This document shows, piece by piece, positions 5,824 through 14,247 of a DNA stretch of 24,000 bases; position 1 is the stretch's first letter; every line of letters begins with the position of its first letter. The translations under genes and the position numbers were made by a program. The stretch spans positions 1 through 24,000 of the forward strand of contig CAXXDN010000001.1 of NCBI GenBank assembly GCA_963667465.2, written 5' to 3'. The DNA comes from Dehalococcoidia bacterium (lineage in GTDB: Bacteria > Chloroflexota > Dehalococcoidia > UBA2979). Under the pieces are notes generated by a model. The model had not been told where the DNA came from and did not search any database. It saw only the letters and a list, made by a program, of their open reading frames with translations.

Positions 5824-7818
5824 CTAGCCTTCGCTCCCCATGGAGCCTTCGCTGTCCATGGCGTCCGCTTCACAGCTGGAGACCCAGACGAAGGTCATAC
5901 CGTCGAAGCCGTCCGCGAATGCCGTGGTGAACCCGATGATCGCGAACGCCGGAGCGGTGCTGCTCCAGAGGTGCCATTCGCCATCGGCGTCCTGGACAGC
6001 GATCTGCGAGCCGCCGGGGCACTCAGCCGCGGCAGCAGCCGCGAAGGCATCGAGCGAGCCGCCGCTGAAGCTACCAATGTTGCCCTGGACGGTCAGCGTG
6101 GCGTCGCCGTCAGGCATGGCCGGCATGTCCGGCTCCTCCGGCATCGCCTCGCCGACCTCGATCAGGATCTGCTCGCGAGCAGTCTGCGTGGTTCCTCGAG
6201 TGCCATCCGCCTTCTCGTTCCACGTCCGAACGAGGAACTGAGCAGTGCCCGAGCTGGACGGTGCGAGGTAGCTGAACTTCGCACGGCCGTCGGACGTGCG
6301 TCCGGATACGGCGCTGGTAAACACGCCGTCGTCGCTGACCTTGACCACCGAGTAGTGGACCGAGCCCACACGGACGTCCTCGTCGTCGAGCACGGTCAGG
6401 TTCACCGTGATCTCACTCAGCGGGTCCATCCGCTCGGGAGCGTCGCTCGTGATCGTGGCCGGCGCACCGCCGATCTCGATCTCGACCGTCACGTCCGCGG
6501 AGCCGTCGGCTGCCGGCCCGGCGATGGTGATGGTGTGCGTGCCGCGCGTGGTGTCGTCCGCAGTCGACGCGGTGTTGGCACCGGCCGTCGTCACCTGGAT
6601 GACGCACTTACCGGCGGCGTTGGTGCCGTTACCCGTCCACCATAGGGACTCGTTAACATCAGTGCCGTCGACGTCCACTCGGTCAGGGGCGTCGCCACAG
6701 GCAGGCAGGTCACCCGCGCCCGCTGCGAGGCCGCCGATGGGGGCGACATCCTTGTCGGCGACGTTGCGCACTACCACCTCGTTGGAACGGGCCTCCGGGC
6801 CGACGACGCCGCTCGCGCCGCTCTTGACGTCGACCGGGTGCCCGGCGACGGCGTTGCCGCCTGCGTCCGTCGCGGTCACGACGATGAACGTGCTGCCGCC
6901 GATCTGGAGGGCCGTCTGCTCGGCAGCCGCCGTGATCGTCTTGGCCGCGCCGTACATCACGATGTCGGCGGTCTGGGTCAGCGTGCTGCCTGCCAGCCGC
7001 ACCGTGATGGTCGCGATGTCCGCCACGCCGCCAGCGGTGAACTTCACGGCTGCATAGCCAGCACCATCCACGTCTTCATCCCCAGTATCGGTGCTGGTGG
7101 TGACGGTGCCGACCTGGGTGCCGCTGCCGTCGAACTCGATGCCACCTGTAACGTCAGTCCAACCGTCGGGGGCGTCGTCTAGGCCCTCGAGTTCCCCATG
7201 ACTGGCGATGACCGTCAGGGCCTTCCCACCGATGCCCTTGCCGTTCTGGTCGGTGAGACGGAACGTGAGCGTGCTTTCGTCCGCAGTATCCGAGCCCTCA
7301 CCAGCGCTGATGGCCTTCGGCGAAGGGCTCGCCGTGAGCTTGGTCGGCACCGGTGCGACGCTGACAGCCAGCTCGTCGGCGGTGGTGACACCGGTCGCCA
7401 GCACGGTCTGCTTGACGATGATCCCGCCAGAGCCGGAATCCTTATCGATCTTCACCGCCACGGTGGTGCCGTCGGCGGTGTTGGCGTCACACGTTCCGGT
7501 AGTCGTCGCGGGCGAGCAGTAGAGGGTCTGTCCGTCGTTCTGTGCACTCGAGTGCGTGAACGACGCGGACGCGTTCCCAATCGCCGTGATCTCGTACAGG
7601 ACGAAGCCCCCAGCGCCGTTATGGATGTAGACGGTGTCGCCGTTGTTCTTCTTGATCGGGGTGTCCAGGGGGCTGCCTGTGGCAGTGTCCCGCACCTCCG
7701 CCTCGACCGTGGAAGTGGAGACGGACAGCAGCACCGCGAGCGCTACCGCGAAGGCGGCGGCGACGGTGAGGCCGTAGGCTCCCAACTTTGTTACGTATTC
7801 AATTTCGACCCCCCTCAA
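5824..7818 (-). CDS. Cell-surface/secreted protein with bacterial Ig-like repeats, right (intact) copy
   Basis: 664-aa ORF with high GC3, an N-terminal hydrophobic signal/anchor, Ig-like repeat segments, and a C-terminal domain shared with the left copy. The start is uncertain: TTG at 7818 per the ORF track, or the internal TTG 27 nt downstream. Confidence 0.8.
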   Translation of the reverse strand: MRGVEIEYVTKLGAYGLTVAAAFAVALAVLLSVSTSTVEAEVRDTATGSPLDTPIKKNNGDTVYIHNGAGGFVLYEITAIGNASASFTHSSAQNDGQTLYCSPATTTGTCDANTADGTTVAVKIDKDSGSGGIIVKQTVLATGVTTADELAVSVAPVPTKLTASPSPKAISAGEGSDTADESTLTFRLTDQNGKGIGGKALTVIASHGELEGLDDAPDGWTDVTGGIEFDGSGTQVGTVTTSTDTGDEDVDGAGYAAVKFTAGGVADIATITVRLAGSTLTQTADIVMYGAAKTITAAAEQTALQIGGSTFIVVTATDAGGNAVAGHPVDVKSGASGVVGPEARSNEVVVRNVADKDVAPIGGLAAGAGDLPACGDAPDRVDVDGTDVNESLWWTGNGTNAAGKCVIQVTTAGANTASTADDTTRGTHTITIAGPAADGSADVTVEIEIGGAPATITSDAPERMDPLSEITVNLTVLDDEDVRVGSVHYSVVKVSDDGVFTSAVSGRTSDGRAKFSYLAPSSSGTAQFLVRTWNEKADGTRGTTQTAREQILIEVGEAMPEEPDMPAMPDGDATLTVQGNIGSFSGGSLDAFAAAAAAECPGGSQIAVQDADGEWHLWSSTAPAFAIIGFTTAFADGFDGMTFVWVSSCEADAMDSEGSMGSEG

Positions 7819-7965
7819 CCCCGCCCGCTCCGGCGAGGGGAGAGGGGGCCGGATCCCCTTCCGATCCCCTCACCCTCCGCCCTCTCCCGCAAGGGGCGAG
7901 GGGACCCGGACCGGACACTCACCCCCGCCCTCTCGCGAGGGGAGAGAGGGGCCGGATCCCGATCG
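7811..7965. repeat. REP-like cluster (family 1), three hairpin units
   Basis: Units are ctccggcgaggggagaggggg, ccctctcccgcaaggggcgagggg and ccctctcgcgaggggagagagggg. The middle unit is near-identical to 9236-9280. Confidence 0.6.
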
Positions 7966-7989
7966 CCCGCCCGTGGTGACACGAAGCGC

Positions 7990-8019
7990 TTGACTCGTCC
8001 TTGGCACGCATGTTCTAGT
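7990..8019 (+). promoter_or_regulatory. Candidate sigma70-type promoter for the 8155-12810 gene string
   Basis: TTGACT (7990-7995), 18 nt, then TCTAGT (8014-8019), in a locally AT-richer patch about 135 nt upstream of the first gene. Confidence 0.3.
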
Positions 8020-8154
8020 ACCCAGCGCCGGGACGCCCCTCGCGTACCCCCTGCACGCGGCGGGCGTTCCGGCAGCAGGCGGAGGGAGGCCGGGTGCGAT
8101 GAACGCGGGGACGGGCTCAGGACATCACAGGCAGGGCAGAGCGGAAGGAACGCA

Positions 8155-8454
8155 GTGTCGATCTTCTCGGGGCTCGCGATTGCGGGCGAGCTGGCGACCG
8201 CGGGGAGCGGCGCGGCAAACGCCGCCTGGTTCGCGCATCGCGCCACTCAGGCGGCCGGGCCGCGGCGGCTCGCGGCGCTGTTGCTGATGCTGCTCTTCGC
8301 CGCCGTGGCGCTGGACGCCGCGGCGCACGTGCTGCCGGGCGCGCCCTCGTGGCCGTCGCTGCAGGGCGTGCTGCTGCGGCTGCCCTTGCTGGCGGCGAAC
8401 GTGCTGGCCGGACTCGCGATCCTCGCGGGCCCGCGCCGGGAGCGCGCGCAGTGA
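8155..8454 (+). CDS. Small integral membrane protein (about 3 TM segments), function unknown
   Basis: GTG start with GGAAGGA 5 nt upstream, high GC3 and three hydrophobic stretches. Its stop overlaps the next start (GTGA). Confidence 0.55.
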   Translation: MSIFSGLAIAGELATAGSGAANAAWFAHRATQAAGPRRLAALLLMLLFAAVALDAAAHVLPGAPSWPSLQGVLLRLPLLAANVLAGLAILAGPRRERAQ

Positions 8455-8624
8455 GCGCCGGGGTGAGCGCGGGAGCACTGGGCGAGGCGCTGCGCGAGGA
8501 GCGTTACGAGGCGGCCGCGCTGCGGCTGCTGCTCGGCGTCCTCGCGGCGCTCGGGCGGGCGGCGGAGTCGGCGCCCGGCACGCGCGAGGAGCTGACCGTG
8601 CTGCTCGGGGCGGAGGACGCATGA
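8451..8624 (+). CDS. Small hypothetical protein (57 aa)
   Basis: Coupled on both sides (GTGA at 8451-8454, ATGA at 8621-8624), with high GC3. The start could instead be GTG 8463. Confidence 0.4.
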   Translation: MSAGVSAGALGEALREERYEAAALRLLLGVLAALGRAAESAPGTREELTVLLGAEDA

Positions 8625-8971
8625 GCGCGGCTCGGTCAGGCGGGTCCGGCAGGTCAGGCGGGGCCGGCGGGGCGCGCGAGGGCTTCTACGAGTCGGCGCT
8701 GGCGGCGGCGGACGCGGCGGCGCTGCGCGAGGCGCGGGCGTTGTCCGGTCTCGGCGACGAGGTGGCGCTGCTGCGGGTGCAGTTGCGGCGCGCGTTCGCG
8801 GACGCGGAGGCGGACCCGCGGACGGTGCAGGCGGGGGTGCGGTTGCTGGTGCAGGCGCTGCTGGCGCAGCACCGGCTCTCCCCGCAGCAGGCGGAGCACC
8901 TCGGCGAGGCGGTCGCGAACGTCCTCGAGGAGTTCGGGGAGGTGCTCGGTGCGGCGGGAGCGGCGGCGTGA
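8621..8971 (+). CDS. Helical hypothetical protein (116 aa); a terminase small subunit role is possible but unproven
   Basis: ATGA-coupled, with high GC3. It lies upstream of the terminase large subunit. I recognise no diagnostic motif. Confidence 0.5.
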   Translation: MSAARSGGSGRSGGAGGAREGFYESALAAADAAALREARALSGLGDEVALLRVQLRRAFADAEADPRTVQAGVRLLVQALLAQHRLSPQQAEHLGEAVANVLEEFGEVLGAAGAAA

Positions 8972-8982
8972 GCGCTCCCGTC

Positions 8983-9002
8983 ATTCCGGCGAACGCCGGA
9001 AT
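8983..9002. other. Perfect palindrome attccggcg-aa-cgccggaat just after the stop codon
   Basis: 9-nt arms, 12 nt downstream of the 8971 stop, with no U-tract. REP-like or a weak terminator. Confidence 0.4.
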
Positions 9003-9070
9003 CCAGGCGCGCTCGACGGTGCTCGGTGCATCGAAGGGTTGGTGCCCCTCGAAGGCTCTTGCCCGGCGGG

Positions 9071-9400
9071 CGTCGGACGAGCGCGCTGCGCGCGGCTCGG
9101 CCCACCCACCCGCCCTTCATTCTTCTTCATGTGGGGGGCTGCGCCCCCCACGCCCCCGCTGCCGCAGAGCGAAGGGTTGTTGCGCCCTCAGACGTCCTTG
9201 CCCACCGGGCGTCGGAGGGGCGCTGCGCGCCTCCCCCTCACCCTCCGCCCTCTCCCGCGAGGGGCGAGGGGACCGGATCGGCCCTCGGAGGGTTGGGTGC
9301 GCCCTCGGAACTTCCGAGGGGGGCGTGGGGGCGCAGCCCCCACATGAAGAAACTCCGAGGGCGGGTGGGCGGGCCTGAGCGGCGCGCAGCGCTCGCTCTC
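9071..9400. repeat. Inverted pair of family 2 REP/MITE-like units bracketing a family 1 REP
   Basis: The left unit 9071-9155 (…ggcccacccacccgccct…ttcttcatgtggggggctgcgccccccacgccccc) matches the reverse complement of the right unit at about 9290-9400. A family 1 hairpin at 9231-9285 lies between them. A third family 2 copy is at 18200-18330. Confidence 0.6.
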
Positions 9401-9498
9401 CGGGATGGGGTGTGGGGGCCTGCGAGGTTTCCTCGCGTCAGATCGAAACAGCGCCCCCCCAACAGACACGCAGGGACGACACGAAAGAGCTGGAACAG

Positions 9499-9759
9499 AT
9501 GACGGAAGACACACAACGGACACCCCTCGCTCCCACCCTCTCGCCGGAGGGCGCCGGAGCGGGCGAGCGGCTGGCGCTGGTGCTGCGGCGCATCGCGGGC
9601 GTCGGGACGCGCGACCGGCCGCCGGAGCACGATCTGCACGCGCGCATCGACTACCTCGAGCGCGACGCGGGGGAGATGCGGCTGCGCGTCAACGGCCTCT
9701 TCTTCGGCCTGATCGCGCTCGCCGCCGGCGAGATCCTGCTGCGGGCGCTGGCCGGATGA
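9499..9759 (+). CDS. Small protein with C-terminal TM segment (86 aa), function unknown
   Basis: ATG 9499 is the first start clear of the repeat. The stop overlaps the terminase ATG (ATGA at 9756-9759). The hydrophobic tail is GLFFGLIALAAGEILL. Confidence 0.45.
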   Translation: MTEDTQRTPLAPTLSPEGAGAGERLALVLRRIAGVGTRDRPPEHDLHARIDYLERDAGEMRLRVNGLFFGLIALAAGEILLRALAG

Positions 9760-11219
9760 GCGCGCCAGCAACGATCGCCGGGGCGCCGGCGACCGCCGGG
9801 GCGTCGCAATCCGCGGAAGGCGCGAGCGGGCTGCCGCGGCTGCGGCCCTACCAGGCAGCGGTCGCGCGCGCCGTCCTCGAGCGGGTCGTGGGCGGCGAGG
9901 GCGGCTCGATCTCGGTGCAGATCGCGCGCCAGGGCGGCAAGAACGAACTCTCGGCGCAGCTCGAGCTGGTGCTGCTGCTGACACGCCAGCGCGCGGGCGG
10001 GACGGTCGTGAAGTGCGCGCCGACCTTCGAGCCGCAGGCCGCGATCTCGCGCGATCGCCTGCTGGCGCGTGCGGACGGCGCACGCCTCGGGGCAATCGTG
10101 CGCCGCGAGGGCGCGGGGTCGGTGCGCTGCGGGCGCGCGGAGGCGCGCTTCCTCTCGGCGGGGCCGGGCGCCTCGGTGCTGGGGCACACGGCGGACCTGC
10201 TGCTGGAGGTCGACGAGGCGCAGGAGGTCCCGGCGGAGAAGTTCGATCGCGACTTCCGTCCGATGGCCGCCGCGACGAACGCGCCGGTCGTCTTCTACGG
10301 CACGCCGTGGGGGCCTCGGTCGCTGCTTGCGCAGGCCGAGGCCGCGCATCGCGAGGCCGAGCGCGCCGACGGGCGGCGGCGCTGCTTCCGCTTCGACTGG
10401 GAGCAGGTGGCGGCGCACAACCCCGCGTACGGCGCGTACGTGGAGGAGGAGCGGCGGCGGCTCGGCGAGCGCCACCCGCTGTTCCGCACGCAGTACCTGC
10501 TGGAGGAGCTGCGCGAGCAGGACCGCCTGCTCGACGGGGCCGCCCGCGCGCAGCTTGAGGGCGAGCACGAGCGCCGCCGCAGCCCGCGGCGCGGCGAGCG
10601 CTACGTCGCCGGCCTCGATCTTGCGGGACCGGCGCTGGCGGGCGGGCGCGGGGCAGACCAACACGACTGGACGGTGCTCACGGTCGCGCGCGTGCGCGCG
10701 GGGAGCAGCGGCCTCCCGCTGCTCGAGGTCGTCGAGCACCAGGCCTGGCAGGGCGCCCCGGCCGGCGAGTTGCTGGACACGCTGGCGGACCGCCTCGCGC
10801 GGGTCTGGCGCGTGCGCCGCGTCGTCGTCGACGCGACGGGCCTCGGCGGCCCGGTCGCCGACCTGCTGGCGCGGCGCTTGCCCTCGGGCCGGGTCGTGCC
10901 GTTCACGTTCACGGCAGAGCGCAAATCGCAGCTCGGCTTTGGGCTGCTGGCGGCGGTGCACTCGGGCCGGCTGCGCCTCTATCGCGTCGACGGTTCGCGC
11001 GAGGCGGCGGAGTGCCGCGTGCAGCTGGAGCGCGCGCGGGCGGCGTACGGCGAGCGCGGGCAGCTGCAGTTCGACGTCGACCCCTCGGAGGGCCACGACG
11101 ACTACCTGATGAGTCTCGCGCTGGCCGTGCACGCCGCGCGCGACGAAGGCGGATCGCGCACCGCGCGCGGCCGCACGCCCGCCGGCGCGGTCGAGGCGGC
11201 GACGGCGGTGGCGGCATGA
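9756..11219 (+). CDS. Phage terminase large subunit-like protein
   Basis: Walker A-like ARQGGKNE, Walker B LLLEVDEAQ and coupling motif FYGTPWG. The C-terminal RNase H-like nuclease aspartates are at VAGLDLAG, VVVDATGLG and HDDYLMSLA. The upstream extension of the 604-aa ORF runs through repeats, so ATG 9756 is preferred. Confidence 0.75.
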   Translation: MSAPATIAGAPATAGASQSAEGASGLPRLRPYQAAVARAVLERVVGGEGGSISVQIARQGGKNELSAQLELVLLLTRQRAGGTVVKCAPTFEPQAAISRDRLLARADGARLGAIVRREGAGSVRCGRAEARFLSAGPGASVLGHTADLLLEVDEAQEVPAEKFDRDFRPMAAATNAPVVFYGTPWGPRSLLAQAEAAHREAERADGRRRCFRFDWEQVAAHNPAYGAYVEEERRRLGERHPLFRTQYLLEELREQDRLLDGAARAQLEGEHERRRSPRRGERYVAGLDLAGPALAGGRGADQHDWTVLTVARVRAGSSGLPLLEVVEHQAWQGAPAGELLDTLADRLARVWRVRRVVVDATGLGGPVADLLARRLPSGRVVPFTFTAERKSQLGFGLLAAVHSGRLRLYRVDGSREAAECRVQLERARAAYGERGQLQFDVDPSEGHDDYLMSLALAVHAARDEGGSRTARGRTPAGAVEAATAVAA

Positions 11220-11593
11220 ACGCCCCGGAAGAGCCGCAGCCGGAGCTGGTGCGCGCGGACGCGCTGCCGGAGCAGGTGGAGTACCGGGACCAGGGCTGCG
11301 ACCTGTTCCCCTCGTGCCTGCACTGCCCGCTGCCGCGCTGTCGCTACGACGAGCCGGGCGGCGCGCGGGCGATGCTGAATCGCATCCGCGATCGCGAGAT
11401 ACGGCGGCTGCGCCGCGAGCACGAGCTGCCCGTCGACGAGATCGCGCGGCGCTATCGCGTCTCGCGCCGGACCGTCTTTCGCGCCCTGCAGCACGGCCCC
11501 GCCTCGCGAGGGCGTCGCGGCTCCTCGGGAGACACGCACGGTCCTCGCGGCGCGCGCCAGGCAAACCACGCCGATCGGAAGGAGATCGAATGA
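11216..11593 (+). CDS. Cys4 + helix-turn-helix protein (125 aa)
   Basis: ATGA-coupled on both sides. It has CDLFPSCLHCPLPRC (C-x6-C-x2-C-x4-C) followed by the HTH VDEIARRYRVSRRTVFRAL. Confidence 0.6.
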   Translation: MNAPEEPQPELVRADALPEQVEYRDQGCDLFPSCLHCPLPRCRYDEPGGARAMLNRIRDREIRRLRREHELPVDEIARRYRVSRRTVFRALQHGPASRGRRGSSGDTHGPRGARQANHADRKEIE

Positions 11594-12810
11594 TGACCCA
11601 GGCAGCAGTCGCGCCGGCCGGCGCAACACCATTCCCGCGCACCCTCGCGCAGCGCGATCGCGAGCGCCTCGCGCGCTACCGCGAGTTCCTCGACTACTAC
11701 GAGGGGCGGCGGGGCGCGGCGCCGGGCGGGCCGCGTGAGCGATCGCTGAGCTTCAACTACGCGCGCGCCTTCGTGGAGAAGGGCGCCTCCTACCTGATGA
11801 CCGCGCACCGCCCGGACGTCGTCGCGGTCGACGGCGGGGGCACCGCCGAGGCGGAGCAGGCGCTGGGCGAGCTGTGGGAGGCGAACGACCTCGAGCGGCT
11901 CGACCTCGAGAGCGAGTTCGACACGGCGACGCTCGGCGACGGCGCGTTCAAGGTGAGCTGGGACGAGCAGGAGCAGCGCGTGGTGGTGACGGCGCCGGAC
12001 GTGCAGGGGCTGTATGTCTGGTGGCTGGGCGACGACGTGCGCCGGATCCGGCGCGTGGCCGCCCGCTACGAGACGCCCTCGGAAGACGCGGAGGCGCGGA
12101 CGGGGCGGCTGCCGCGCGGGCCCGGCGGCCGCACCCCGGAGCGCGTGACGCTGACGGAGGTGTGGACGGCGGAGCGCTTCGAGCTGTGGGTGGAGGACGA
12201 GCCGGTCGAGGCGCGGGCCAACCCGTACGGAGTGATCCCGTTCGTAATCTTCCCCAACACCCCGCGCCCGAAGCAGTTCTGGGGCATCTCCGACATCGAG
12301 CCGCTGCGCGAGTCGATCGTCGAGCTGAACCGCGCGATGACCCAGCTGAGCCGCATCCTCGAGCTCTCCGGCAACCCGATCGCCGTCCTCGAAAACGTCG
12401 AGGAGTCACGCGGCATCGCGGTGCAGCCGGGTGCGGTCTGGGAGCTGCCGGAGGAGGCGCGCGCGTACCTCCTCGATCTGCTGCAGGGCGGCGGGGTGCG
12501 GCTGCACGCCGACTACCTGAACCAGGTCTACCGGACGATGCACGACCTCGCGGAGATGCCGCGCATCGCGTTCGGGGACGGATCGGGCGACCGCTCCGGG
12601 GTCGCGCTGCGCCTCGAGCTGGACCCGCTGCTACGCAAGGTGGCGCGCAAGCGCCTGATCCGCAGCGCGGCGATGCGCAAGCGCGATCGGCTGATGCTGC
12701 GCATCCTCGCGCACCATACGGGCCGCCGCTTCGAGGGCGTCCGCACGGAGATCGCCTGGTCCGCGATCTACAGCGGCGATGAGACAGGCCTGATCGAGGC
12801 GGCCGCGTAG
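11590..12810 (+). CDS. Phage portal protein, SPP1 Gp6-like
   Basis: GGAAGGAG RBS 5 nt upstream of ATG 11590. Portal-type pattern: RYREFLDYYEG…SFNYARAFVEKGASYLM…NPYGVIPFVIFPN…ISDIEPL…ELNRAMTQLSRILELSGNPIAVL. Confidence 0.7.
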   Translation: MMTQAAVAPAGATPFPRTLAQRDRERLARYREFLDYYEGRRGAAPGGPRERSLSFNYARAFVEKGASYLMTAHRPDVVAVDGGGTAEAEQALGELWEANDLERLDLESEFDTATLGDGAFKVSWDEQEQRVVVTAPDVQGLYVWWLGDDVRRIRRVAARYETPSEDAEARTGRLPRGPGGRTPERVTLTEVWTAERFELWVEDEPVEARANPYGVIPFVIFPNTPRPKQFWGISDIEPLRESIVELNRAMTQLSRILELSGNPIAVLENVEESRGIAVQPGAVWELPEEARAYLLDLLQGGGVRLHADYLNQVYRTMHDLAEMPRIAFGDGSGDRSGVALRLELDPLLRKVARKRLIRSAAMRKRDRLMLRILAHHTGRRFEGVRTEIAWSAIYSGDETGLIEAAA

Positions 12811-12825
12811 CACCCAGCGGGGCGA

Positions 12826-14247
12826 CTACTCGTCAGGCAGAACGTCGTCGTCCAGAACGTCGTCCGGAACGGGAGTGGCGTAGAGGGCCTCGCGGTAGGC
12901 CTCGAAGGCGTCGTAGAAGTCATCGGCGGTGATGCCGAAGACATCCTCGAACGCGTCCTCCCAGTCCCGGGCGGACGCGAGCCGCCGGTAGTACTCGATG
13001 TAGGCGGCGGTCTCCGTGAAGCTGTCCGGCCACCCCACCTCCTGCGGCGCGAACTCCGCCTCGTCGCCGTCCAGGGCCAGGCGCCCTTCCAGCCACTCGA
13101 CGGCGAGGGCGGCGAGGCTGTAGACCGGCGCCTCACCGGCGTAGAACACCCTGATCAACTCGAGGTCGCCGATCGGCTCGGTGATGTGACTGCTGTGCTG
13201 CCAGCGGGCGTTGCGCAACTGCTCGCCCGTGATGTCCCGGACGGCGAGCCGGTAGCGGCCGCCCGCGTACGTCGCGGTGCCTTCGGTCATCCAGGCCGGC
13301 GAGCGCGTCCGCCCGGCAAGGTGGCGTTGCAGGACGTGGAAGTACTCATGCGCGAGGGTCACTGTGCGCAGCGGGTAGTCCATGACGTCGCTGCTCAGCA
13401 GGATCCGGCTGGACAGGGCTCCTGCGAAGATCTGCAGGTCAGGGTGGTACTCCACCTGGAATGGCGGAGGTTCGATCCCGTAGCGCTCCGCGAAGAACGT
13501 GACGACACTCGCCATGTCCTCCCGAAGCGATGCCTGCTCCTCCTCGGTTCGCTCACCTCCGAACTCGAACGTCGTCCCCACCAGCCCCGATTGCCACCAG
13601 CGCGCCGCACCACTCAGCTTCATCCAGAACGCGTCGCCCCGCTTCAGTTCGCGCAGCGTGTTGGCCGAGTCTTCCGCGTCCAGCCGGTACCGCTCGTACC
13701 GTTGCGTGACCGCGTTCCAGCGCTTCGCCTCGAGCAGCGAGTCGCCGAAGCGTTCGACCGACTCGGCGAACGGCTCGCCGTCGCGTCCCCCCCAGCCGAC
13801 GAGGTTCCAGCCCGCCTGAAGGGTGAGCAGTACGCCACCCTCGGGCAGCGTGAGGGTCCACTCGACGATCGAGTCGCCGCCGATGTAGAGCCACAGCCCC
13901 ATGCCGGTAGTCACGTGCCTGAGCGCGTAGCGCGGCCTGCTGGTGGGAAAGGCCCGCAGGTAGCGCTCGGCCTCGTTGTCCCACCCGTAGACGCGCTCCA
14001 ACTCCGGAATCGCATCGAACACATCGGAGACGGGACCAGCAGGCCCGAGCCAGGCGGCCATGTTCCAGCCGGGCTGCAGCTGCATCGTCAGCGTGGCCGG
14101 CGCTTCTTCCGATCCGTCCGCCGATGCAGTCGTGGATGTGGAGGCAAGGGAGGCGCCGAGCAGCGCGGCTGCGAGAAGGACGGCCAGGAAGAGCCGCAGA
14201 CGCCTCGGCAAGATGCCGCCTCCAATGCGAGAACGGGGGCCCGCCAC
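12826..14247 (-). CDS. Secreted zinc metalloprotease-like protein (HExxH) with two N-terminal beta-rich modules
   Basis: Signal peptide LRLFLAVLLAAALLGASLAS, two LxLxxGWN…W…GDAFW modules, then LAHEYFHVLQ (HExxH). TTG at 14211, with GGAGG 7 nt upstream, is the more likely start. Confidence 0.75.
   Translation of the reverse strand: MAGPRSRIGGGILPRRLRLFLAVLLAAALLGASLASTSTTASADGSEEAPATLTMQLQPGWNMAAWLGPAGPVSDVFDAIPELERVYGWDNEAERYLRAFPTSRPRYALRHVTTGMGLWLYIGGDSIVEWTLTLPEGGVLLTLQAGWNLVGWGGRDGEPFAESVERFGDSLLEAKRWNAVTQRYERYRLDAEDSANTLRELKRGDAFWMKLSGAARWWQSGLVGTTFEFGGERTEEEQASLREDMASVVTFFAERYGIEPPPFQVEYHPDLQIFAGALSSRILLSSDVMDYPLRTVTLAHEYFHVLQRHLAGRTRSPAWMTEGTATYAGGRYRLAVRDITGEQLRNARWQHSSHITEPIGDLELIRVFYAGEAPVYSLAALAVEWLEGRLALDGDEAEFAPQEVGWPDSFTETAAYIEYYRRLASARDWEDAFEDVFGITADDFYDAFEAYREALYATPVPDDVLDDDVLPDE

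Follow-up and report, generated by a model that had tools for sequence, protein, structure and literature searches.

What purpose could a phage terminase and a portal protein serve in a bacterial chromosome when no capsid gene lies near them? This question is raised by a stretch of 24,000 nucleotides from a Dehalococcoidia bacterium (GenBank assembly GCA_963667465.2, contig CAXXDN010000001.1, positions 1 to 24,000), referred to here as the window. The assembly consists of two contigs with a total of 2.97 Mb and 71% G+C; the window is taken from the very start of contig C1, whose length is 1.06 Mb. The packaging operon in question occupies 8155–12810 and consists of seven co-oriented genes. A promoter is followed by genes A, B, C and D, the gene for the large terminase subunit (TerL), the gene for a cysteine-cluster protein with a helix-turn-helix domain (Cys-HTH), and the portal gene.

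An initial annotation, based on the letters of the window, described this module as an orphan with nothing to package into, kept without a virion. That description does not hold, because an operon encoding scaffold, capsid, adaptor and hub proteins is located about 340 kb away. The window carries the operon for DNA packaging that belongs to a particle system of phage origin in the Dehalococcoidia, and this operon is vertically inherited and under purifying selection. The system as a whole is best understood as domesticated, probably under SOS-type control and similar to gene transfer agents (GTAs), with particles that most likely carry host DNA; a probability of roughly 0.7 is assigned to this reading.

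The capsid operon and its link to the packaging operon

A search of the whole genome with the HK97 capsid family returned exactly one match, at 354.6–355.4 kb of C1 on the minus strand. The gene belongs to an operon at G000:C1:351.7–356.1 kb (G000 denotes this genome), also on the minus strand and thus on the same contig as the packaging operon. The distance of about 340 kb applies to C1 handled as a linear molecule; a circular path could make the true distance between the loci shorter. A second prophage as the supplier of capsids was considered and rejected, since the genome contains only this one HK97 capsid match.

Five genes make up the capsid operon. They encode an acidic, helical scaffold-like protein of 162 aa, the capsid protein (phrog_212, 7e-71; Pfam Phage_capsid, GP7 and SU10_MCP), an adaptor of 201 aa that matches Pfam SU10_adaptor (PF24175) over its whole length at 3e-9, a hub protein of 656 aa that combines a gp27/Mu gp44-type hub with a beta-propeller, and a protein of 70 aa. 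The flanks are cellular, with ruvB on one side and GNAT, VKOR, DsbA-like and ClpC genes on the other. Sequence-family scans of the hub were empty, and structure prediction alone identified its fold. In the AlphaFold2 (AF2) model (predicted local distance difference test, pLDDT, 92.7; predicted TM-score, pTM, 0.89), the C-terminal half matches Mu gp44 in Foldseek (1wru, E 1e-13, TMt 0.70), as well as the hubs of contractile injection systems, the type VI secretion system, T4 and pyocin R2. The hub also matches viral models labelled 'tail protein / protein D / gpP'. The N-terminal half is modelled as a beta-propeller resembling sialidases and lectins. Together, the two operons provide a complete minimal set of head, packaging and neck/hub genes, in which portal, TerL and HK97 capsid protein are each encoded once; neither TerL nor the portal has a second copy anywhere in the genome.

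The portal is tied to the capsid set, as the two are present or absent together in most relatives and contiguous in other families. In a set of 41 related genomes, with this genome counted in, 33 have the portal and 30 the capsid gene, and both halves are absent in six (G021–G024, G039 and G040). The relatives with only a portal are fragmented assemblies of 120–340 contigs, and the only two with a capsid gene alone, G014 and G017, both carry deletions. Portal and capsid genes are adjacent or a few kb apart in G038, G025 and G037, 5–46 kb apart in G034, G020, G030 and G029, and 350–780 kb apart in all members of this genus that have both on one contig. Within the genus, the capsid operon always lies between the GNAT gene and, where present, ruvB. 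The initial annotation had held that structural genes lying elsewhere in the genome, beyond a rearrangement breakpoint, would speak against a domesticated module. Such genes do literally lie elsewhere, but the two halves parted long ago, in a way common to the whole genus, and the separation does not reflect a recent breakpoint in a decaying prophage.

Several variations on this arrangement were observed among the relatives. The capsid operons of G038 and G037 are longer and encode extra proteins of 154, 228 (Laminin_G_3) and 89 aa; at L031:6424–7110 (G038) and equivalent places, one of the extra genes between the capsid and adaptor genes carries a Laminin_G_3/concanavalin-like domain (3e-11). 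None of these extra proteins has a tblastn match in this genome at E 1e-3, and this genus therefore has a compact version of the operon. In the compact, contiguous system of G038, a gene for 812 aa lies on the opposite strand between the TerL and HTH genes (L031:11301–13739). Contig C4 of G011, a small one, carries a second capsid gene and a second ruvB with 80–85% identity to this genome, compared with 94–95% for the main copies, which suggests a contig binned from another species.

Distribution and descent

The packaging operon is not a peculiarity of this genome. At least 542 species-level contigs encode a relative of the portal, and the best 80 of them, almost all labelled as Dehalococcoidia or Chloroflexota metagenome-assembled genomes, were used for locus comparison. 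Nearly all of these 80 loci show the order C-(D)-TerL-HTH-portal, at identities of 46–99%. Among the 43 loci with at least 8 kb of downstream sequence, 16 have the scaffold-capsid-adaptor-hub set on the same strand within 10 kb, and in four of the 16 it is directly adjacent. The synteny across related genomes that the initial annotation had proposed to check is consequently found throughout the class. In an evenly drawn sample of 401 Dehalococcoidia genomes, the portal profile matched in 234; limited to high-quality genomes the count is 184 of 299, and by genus it is 135 of 223. Presence of the capsid gene was examined for the 41 relatives only. Some families have no portal at all (0/25, 0/11 and 0/8).

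The divergence of the particle genes follows that of their hosts. The more distant a relative is in taxonomy, and the lower its RuvB identity, the less its particle proteins resemble those of this genome. The Spearman coefficient between RuvB and portal identities is 0.96 (n=25), and that between RuvB and capsid protein identities is 0.91; the p-values overstate significance because the genomes are related to one another.

Genes of the packaging operon

Genes were called from plots of G+C content at third codon positions (GC3) by frame together with the list of open reading frames (ORFs). The initial annotation had recognised four genes, a small membrane protein, TerL, Cys-HTH and an SPP1-type portal, joined by ATGA overlaps at 9756, 11216 and 11590. 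These overlaps are confirmed, and further start/stop overlaps were found at 8451 (GTGA) and 8621 (ATGA). The operon begins upstream of these four genes, with the promoter at 7990–8022 and then genes A, B and C. The four assignments agree with the membrane anchor in D, the Pfam and PHROG matches and the conservation of residues. The intact frames and host-like composition reported initially are likewise evident: TerL and the portal have GC3 values of 0.89–0.98, matching the neighbouring genes, and no frame breaks.

TerL (9756–11219, plus strand, 487 aa) consists of an ATPase and an RNaseH-like nuclease. It matches Pfam Terminase_6C above the cut-off (3.6e-7) and phrog_7579 (2.4e-11), in addition to phrogs 5713 and 38. 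In 37 sequences, each from a different species, the Walker A motif RQxGKNE, the Walker B motif LLEVDE and the GT coupling motif are invariant, as are the acidic sites of the nuclease (D288, D359 and H447-D448-D449). The protein has what defines a large terminase, namely ATPase motifs, a coupling motif and a three-acid RNaseH-like nuclease. The portal (11590–12810, plus strand, 406 aa) belongs to the SPP1 type, with a match to SPP1_portal (PF05133) of 4.9e-13 and 49.3 bits against a cut-off of 25.5, covering positions 6–354 of the 416 in the model, and a match to phrog_64 of 5e-21. Nine portal sequences from seven families share 81 invariant columns.

Between these two genes lies Cys-HTH (11216–11593, plus strand, 125 aa), which matches HTH_23, sigma-70 region 4 and phrog_836, annotated as 'late transcriptional activator' (9e-7). 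In 23 sequences, C28, C37 and C42 are invariant and C34 is present in most. A profile search against the PDB returned generic helix-turn-helix domains only, with no match on the cysteine cluster; that the cluster binds zinc or an iron-sulphur centre is only a guess. From these sequence features, the protein is a candidate transcription activator of particle genes.

The remaining four genes, A to D, have no Pfam or PHROG match. Gene A (8155–8454, plus strand, 99 aa, GC3 0.90–0.96) contains three hydrophobic segments and has homologues in the same position in relatives from the genus and the family, so that it may be regarded as a candidate membrane or holin-like protein. Gene B (8451–8624, plus strand, 57 aa) overlaps A by GTGA. 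Gene C (8621–8971, plus strand, 116 aa) is all-helical, stands directly before TerL throughout the class and is present in most of the 80 loci. The alignment shows Y23, A38, E47, R52 and L76 to be invariant, and the AF2 model (pLDDT 72) has five helices. Its position before TerL and its class-wide conservation make it a small-terminase candidate. Gene D (9499–9759, plus strand, 86 aa), which overlaps TerL by ATGA, encodes a coiled coil with a C-terminal membrane anchor. This type of small protein occurs class-wide, and equivalents with a C-terminal hydrophobic segment and the motif R-V/I-N-G/A-L-I/F-F stand between C and TerL in dozens of loci.

Genes C and D are separated by a non-coding spacer of 527 bp (8972–9498) that consists of repetitive extragenic palindromic (REP) and miniature inverted-repeat transposable element (MITE) sequences. 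The presence of such elements upstream of D, noted initially, is supported by a REP copy at 9234–9274 that is 98% identical to 7866–7906, and by a 58-nt inverted repeat pair (9099–9156 and 9318–9375). In the G013-type relatives that were compared, C and D are separated by no more than about 100 bp, and in other lineages the distance of 210–340 nt from C to TerL is occupied by gene D. In one close relative (L039:7168–8111), the spacer has grown to about 750 bp with a short unit repeated five times in tandem, reading PRLDSGFRRNDGKGEPAPSPGGEGGAPPM in one frame, which indicates that arrays of the REP type expand within the operon in this subclade.

A LexA-type promoter

The promoter at 7990–8022 (plus strand) consists of TTGACT, 9 nt, GCACGCATGTTC and TAGTAC, and includes a LexA-type (Cheo-like) box. 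Its layout is kept in relatives from the genus, several of which have the perfect sequence GAAC-N4-GTTC, and the recA promoter of this genome is built in the same way. Only three matches to the pattern TTGRC-N6-10-GNAC-N4-GTTCTA exist in the 2.97-Mb genome, two of them at recA and the packaging operon. The third, at G000:C2:398141 on the minus strand, reads TTGGC...GTACAAATGTTCTA and has no high-GC3 ORF start within 400 nt downstream.

Perfect boxes precede recA, ruvB and a divergent imuB/dnaE2 pair in this genome, all of which are classic LexA targets, and lexA itself is preceded by GAAC-ATAT-GTAC. The box of the divergent pair, at G000:C1:1033192, lies between an imuB-like gene (400 aa) and a dnaE2-like gene (1152 aa), both identified from their N-terminal sequences only. 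Across the best 80 loci, 50 perfect boxes were found, most of them in two places: just upstream of A, 450–620 nt before C (about 25 loci), and just upstream of the scaffold gene (about 8 loci). These observations indicate that the packaging operon is probably SOS-controlled, with LexA as the predicted binding protein. For the capsid operon in this genus, Cys-HTH would be the obvious candidate for the switch.

A generic scan of 7700–13000 for sigma-70 promoters and terminators was uninformative. A conserved TACGAT occurs at L038:11185–11215 and in the corresponding position of nine relatives, 6–8 nt upstream of the ATG start codon of the GNAT gene, which is oriented away from the capsid operon; the motif resembles the promoter of a leaderless transcript.

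Proposed mechanism and the function of the particle

Based on the gene content, the following sequence of events can be proposed. DNA damage would lift LexA repression of the packaging operon, and Cys-HTH made from it would activate the capsid operon. The scaffold, capsid and portal proteins would assemble into proheads, which TerL, together with the small-terminase candidate C, would load with DNA through the portal. Sealing of the portal by the adaptor and the trimeric hub would then complete a particle with almost no tail. A and/or D, as membrane proteins, could possibly aid release, and the particles would take host DNA to other cells. With its genes distributed over about 340 kb, the set would not fit whole into any ordinary head, and viral spread is consequently not expected. 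A more specific form of this proposal describes an independent, nearly tail-less GTA triggered by DNA damage, whose operons drift hundreds of kb apart yet cooperate through the Cys-HTH activator encoded between TerL and the portal. In this detailed form the proposal is tentative and somewhat more likely to need revision than to stand.

The particle might also be domesticated for a different task, such as SOS-triggered killing or adhesion in the manner of tailocins, release or disposal of DNA, or interference with phages. The conservation data fit such a role equally well, and the tail would be an unusual apparatus for DNA delivery: it is made up of an adaptor and a hub whose propeller is lectin/sialidase-like, and neither tube nor fibres were recognised. 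However, the ATPase and nuclease residues of TerL and the portal are strictly conserved, which points to the loading of capsids with DNA as the activity under selection. The tailocin-like variant is further weakened by the fact that known tailocins (R and F pyocins), to our knowledge, have no capsid, portal or terminase. A different task is considered unlikely.

Selection, losses and points against the proposed reading

The ratio of nonsynonymous to synonymous substitutions (dN/dS) was calculated against close relatives with the Nei–Gojobori method (NG86), a simple pairwise estimate. The values are 0.14–0.26 for A, 0.05–0.08 for C (close pairs), 0.17–0.24 for TerL, 0.06–0.17 for the portal, 0.06–0.16 for the capsid protein and 0.21–0.36 for the hub. 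The values for C, TerL, the portal and the capsid protein are comparable to those of cellular genes, namely the extracytoplasmic function (ECF) sigma factor (0.04–0.14), the M48 peptidase (0.03–0.23) and RuvB (0.08–0.13). Since GC3 is near 0.95, dS is probably compressed, and the ratios are, if anything, overestimates. A dN/dS near 1 had been named at the outset as the sign of decay; the observed 0.06–0.24 lies far from it and resembles the cellular neighbours.

These values bear directly on the possibility that the genes are an old defective prophage, split by a rearrangement and decaying slowly, with frames that remain intact by chance. Such an origin would be compatible with structural genes that do lie elsewhere, with REP/MITE and IS110 activity around the locus, with deletions in three sister species and with the many class members that have no such genes. 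It is difficult to reconcile with dN/dS values of 0.06–0.24 equal to those of cellular neighbours, catalytic residues invariant in 37 species, and the same gene order in at least 80 species at 46–99% identity, tracking ruvB. The split is also common to the genus with fixed host flanks, and no integrase, repressor or replication gene is present at either locus. The features by which a prophage would be recognised (an integrase or att sites, patchy presence in close strains, relaxed selection) were not found. A decaying prophage is consequently very unlikely and already largely refuted. The initial suggestion that the pair does not show the usual decay of a prophage and could be a domesticated, GTA-like module is strengthened by the class-wide synteny, the low dN/dS and the invariant catalytic residues.

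The same suggestion had included a satellite or hijacker, or a decoy that interferes with phage packaging. A mobile satellite similar to phage-inducible chromosomal islands (PICIs), forming its own capsid and using a helper phage, would fit the small number of genes, since capsid-forming PICIs likewise encode a terminase, a portal and a capsid of their own. The ORFs of the window and the capsid locus include no integrase, repressor, replication or lysogeny genes, and the four tyrosine-integrase matches in the genome are all on the other contig, none on C1. No primase or replicase and no att-like flanks were seen, and the fixed chromosomal positions, the split over hundreds of kb and the vertical descent also contradict a mobile element. 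A satellite is thus the least credible of the origins considered here. Both the satellite and the decoy were rejected, because no integrase or replication genes occur at either locus and the full set of particle genes is chromosomal.

The reading of a domesticated, GTA-like system also has to contend with a number of observations that weigh against it. A first group concerns missing parts. Gene C found no match in Pfam, PHROG, PDB profiles or Foldseek (none at E<0.1); the PDB profile search gave chance coiled-coil matches only, and a Pfam scan member by member gave nothing consistent. The genome search for a prohead protease with PF04586 (Peptidase_S78), the sole protease family searched, had no match, and the tape measure gave none above the cut-off. 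Tail tube, fibre and endolysin genes were not recognised at either locus, to which the search for them was confined. A second group concerns control. The box at 7990–8022 has one mismatch to GAAC-N4-GTTC (GCAC for GAAC), the capsid operon of this genus has no LexA box within one mismatch in 9 of 10 loci, and the 527-bp REP/MITE insertion between C and D might affect expression.

A third group concerns losses. The portal is missing in 167 of the 401 class genomes, which marks the system as dispensable, and three of the 18 species of the genus (G009, G014 and G017) carry deletions. In G009, the missing stretch runs from residue 58 of A to residue 217 of TerL. TerL residues 1–419 are kept in G014 and 1–380 in G017; both have lost the C-terminus of TerL, the HTH gene, the portal and half of the convergent neighbouring gene, and an IS110-family transposase occupies the gap. 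Their capsid operons are intact, with 92–94% capsid identity. The deletions in sister species show that the system can be done without and that some lineages are losing it, as happens with known GTAs; in this genome, all parts are intact.

Relation to known systems

The system shares its main properties with the GTAs RcGTA (of Rhodobacter capsulatus, with alphaproteobacterial relatives), BaGTA, VSH-1, Dd1 and VTA: chromosomal phage genes that are vertically inherited over a large taxon under purifying selection, the absence of integration and replication genes, more than one locus, apparent wiring to host regulators, and losses in some lineages. As would be expected of a GTA, the particle genes are chromosomal, vertically inherited and selected, and no genes for self-propagation accompany them. 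The origin is an independent one. TerL, the portal and the capsid protein belong to other families than those of the known GTAs, and the tail comprises only the SU10-like adaptor and the gp27-type hub. The closest capsids from cultured phages, those of Pseudomonas phages such as PaMx11 and of Acinetobacter phage Effie, are 42–43% identical and more distant than any Dehalococcoidia copy.

The RcGTA lineage has a cluster of about 15 kb with an HK97 prohead protease, a tail tube and a tape measure. The present system is not a member of it, as there is no Peptidase_S78 match, no tape measure above the cut-off and no tube recognised at either locus. Control differs as well: RcGTA is regulated by CtrA and quorum sensing, in contrast to the LexA/SOS-type appearance here. 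With defective or cryptic prophages, the system shares structural genes without lysogeny functions, nearby insertion sequence (IS) and REP elements, and occasional deletions. It differs from them in its class-wide synteny, low dN/dS, invariant catalytic residues and host-tracking divergence.

A further comparison can be made with Escherichia phage SU10 (Kuravirus). The adaptor matches PF24175 at 3e-9 and the capsid protein touches SU10_MCP and GP7, which suggests a short-tailed neck architecture. In contrast to SU10, no nozzle, needle or fibre genes were recognised, and the adaptor is followed by a gp27/Mu gp44-type hub with a propeller. The gp27/Mu gp44 hub fold is typical of the baseplates of long-tailed phages and of contractile injection systems.

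Other features of the window

Outside the operon, Pfam and PHROG scans of the ORFs identify cellular or IS DNA. An IS110-family transposase gene (3510–4733) lies 5 kb upstream of the packaging operon, and the other genes encode an ECF sigma factor, an M48 peptidase, an acyl-CoA dehydrogenase, a beta-lactamase-like protein and a flavin reductase. The same scans found no capsid, protease, tail or integrase family among these ORFs, in line with the initial statement that the 24 kb contain no capsid, prohead protease, tail or integrase.

Directly after the portal, the gene at 12826–14247 (minus strand) encodes a protein of 473 aa with a signal-like N-terminus and an HExxH motif. It had been described as a convergent, secreted metalloprotease; the convergent orientation is correct and the HExxH motif is visible, but the protein matches no Pfam family. 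It diverges fast, with 62% identity to G004 compared with 93% for the portal, and it is the neighbour of which half is gone in the G014 and G017 deletions.

Significance

Only a few independent domestications are known to have given rise to GTAs, and Chloroflexota is not known to be among the groups concerned; full-text literature searches turned up no GTA-like system in Dehalococcoidia or Chloroflexota. The genes described here consequently represent a candidate new GTA-like system. New for this genome are the large separation of the two operons, the REP/MITE insertion, the one-mismatch operator, the head operon without a box and the IS110-linked losses in sister species. With about 340 kb between its halves, a weakened operator and REP invasion, it represents the extreme end of dispersal.

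Search tools that require contiguous prophage or GTA clusters would miss dispersed systems of this kind, and a terminase-portal cassette that seems orphaned can be half of one. The Dehalococcoidia include organohalide respirers, marine SAR202-type lineages and sponge symbionts, and they are hard to culture and to manipulate genetically. If the proposed reading is true, the particles would hint at a natural route of DNA exchange in this class and might serve as a tool for DNA delivery.

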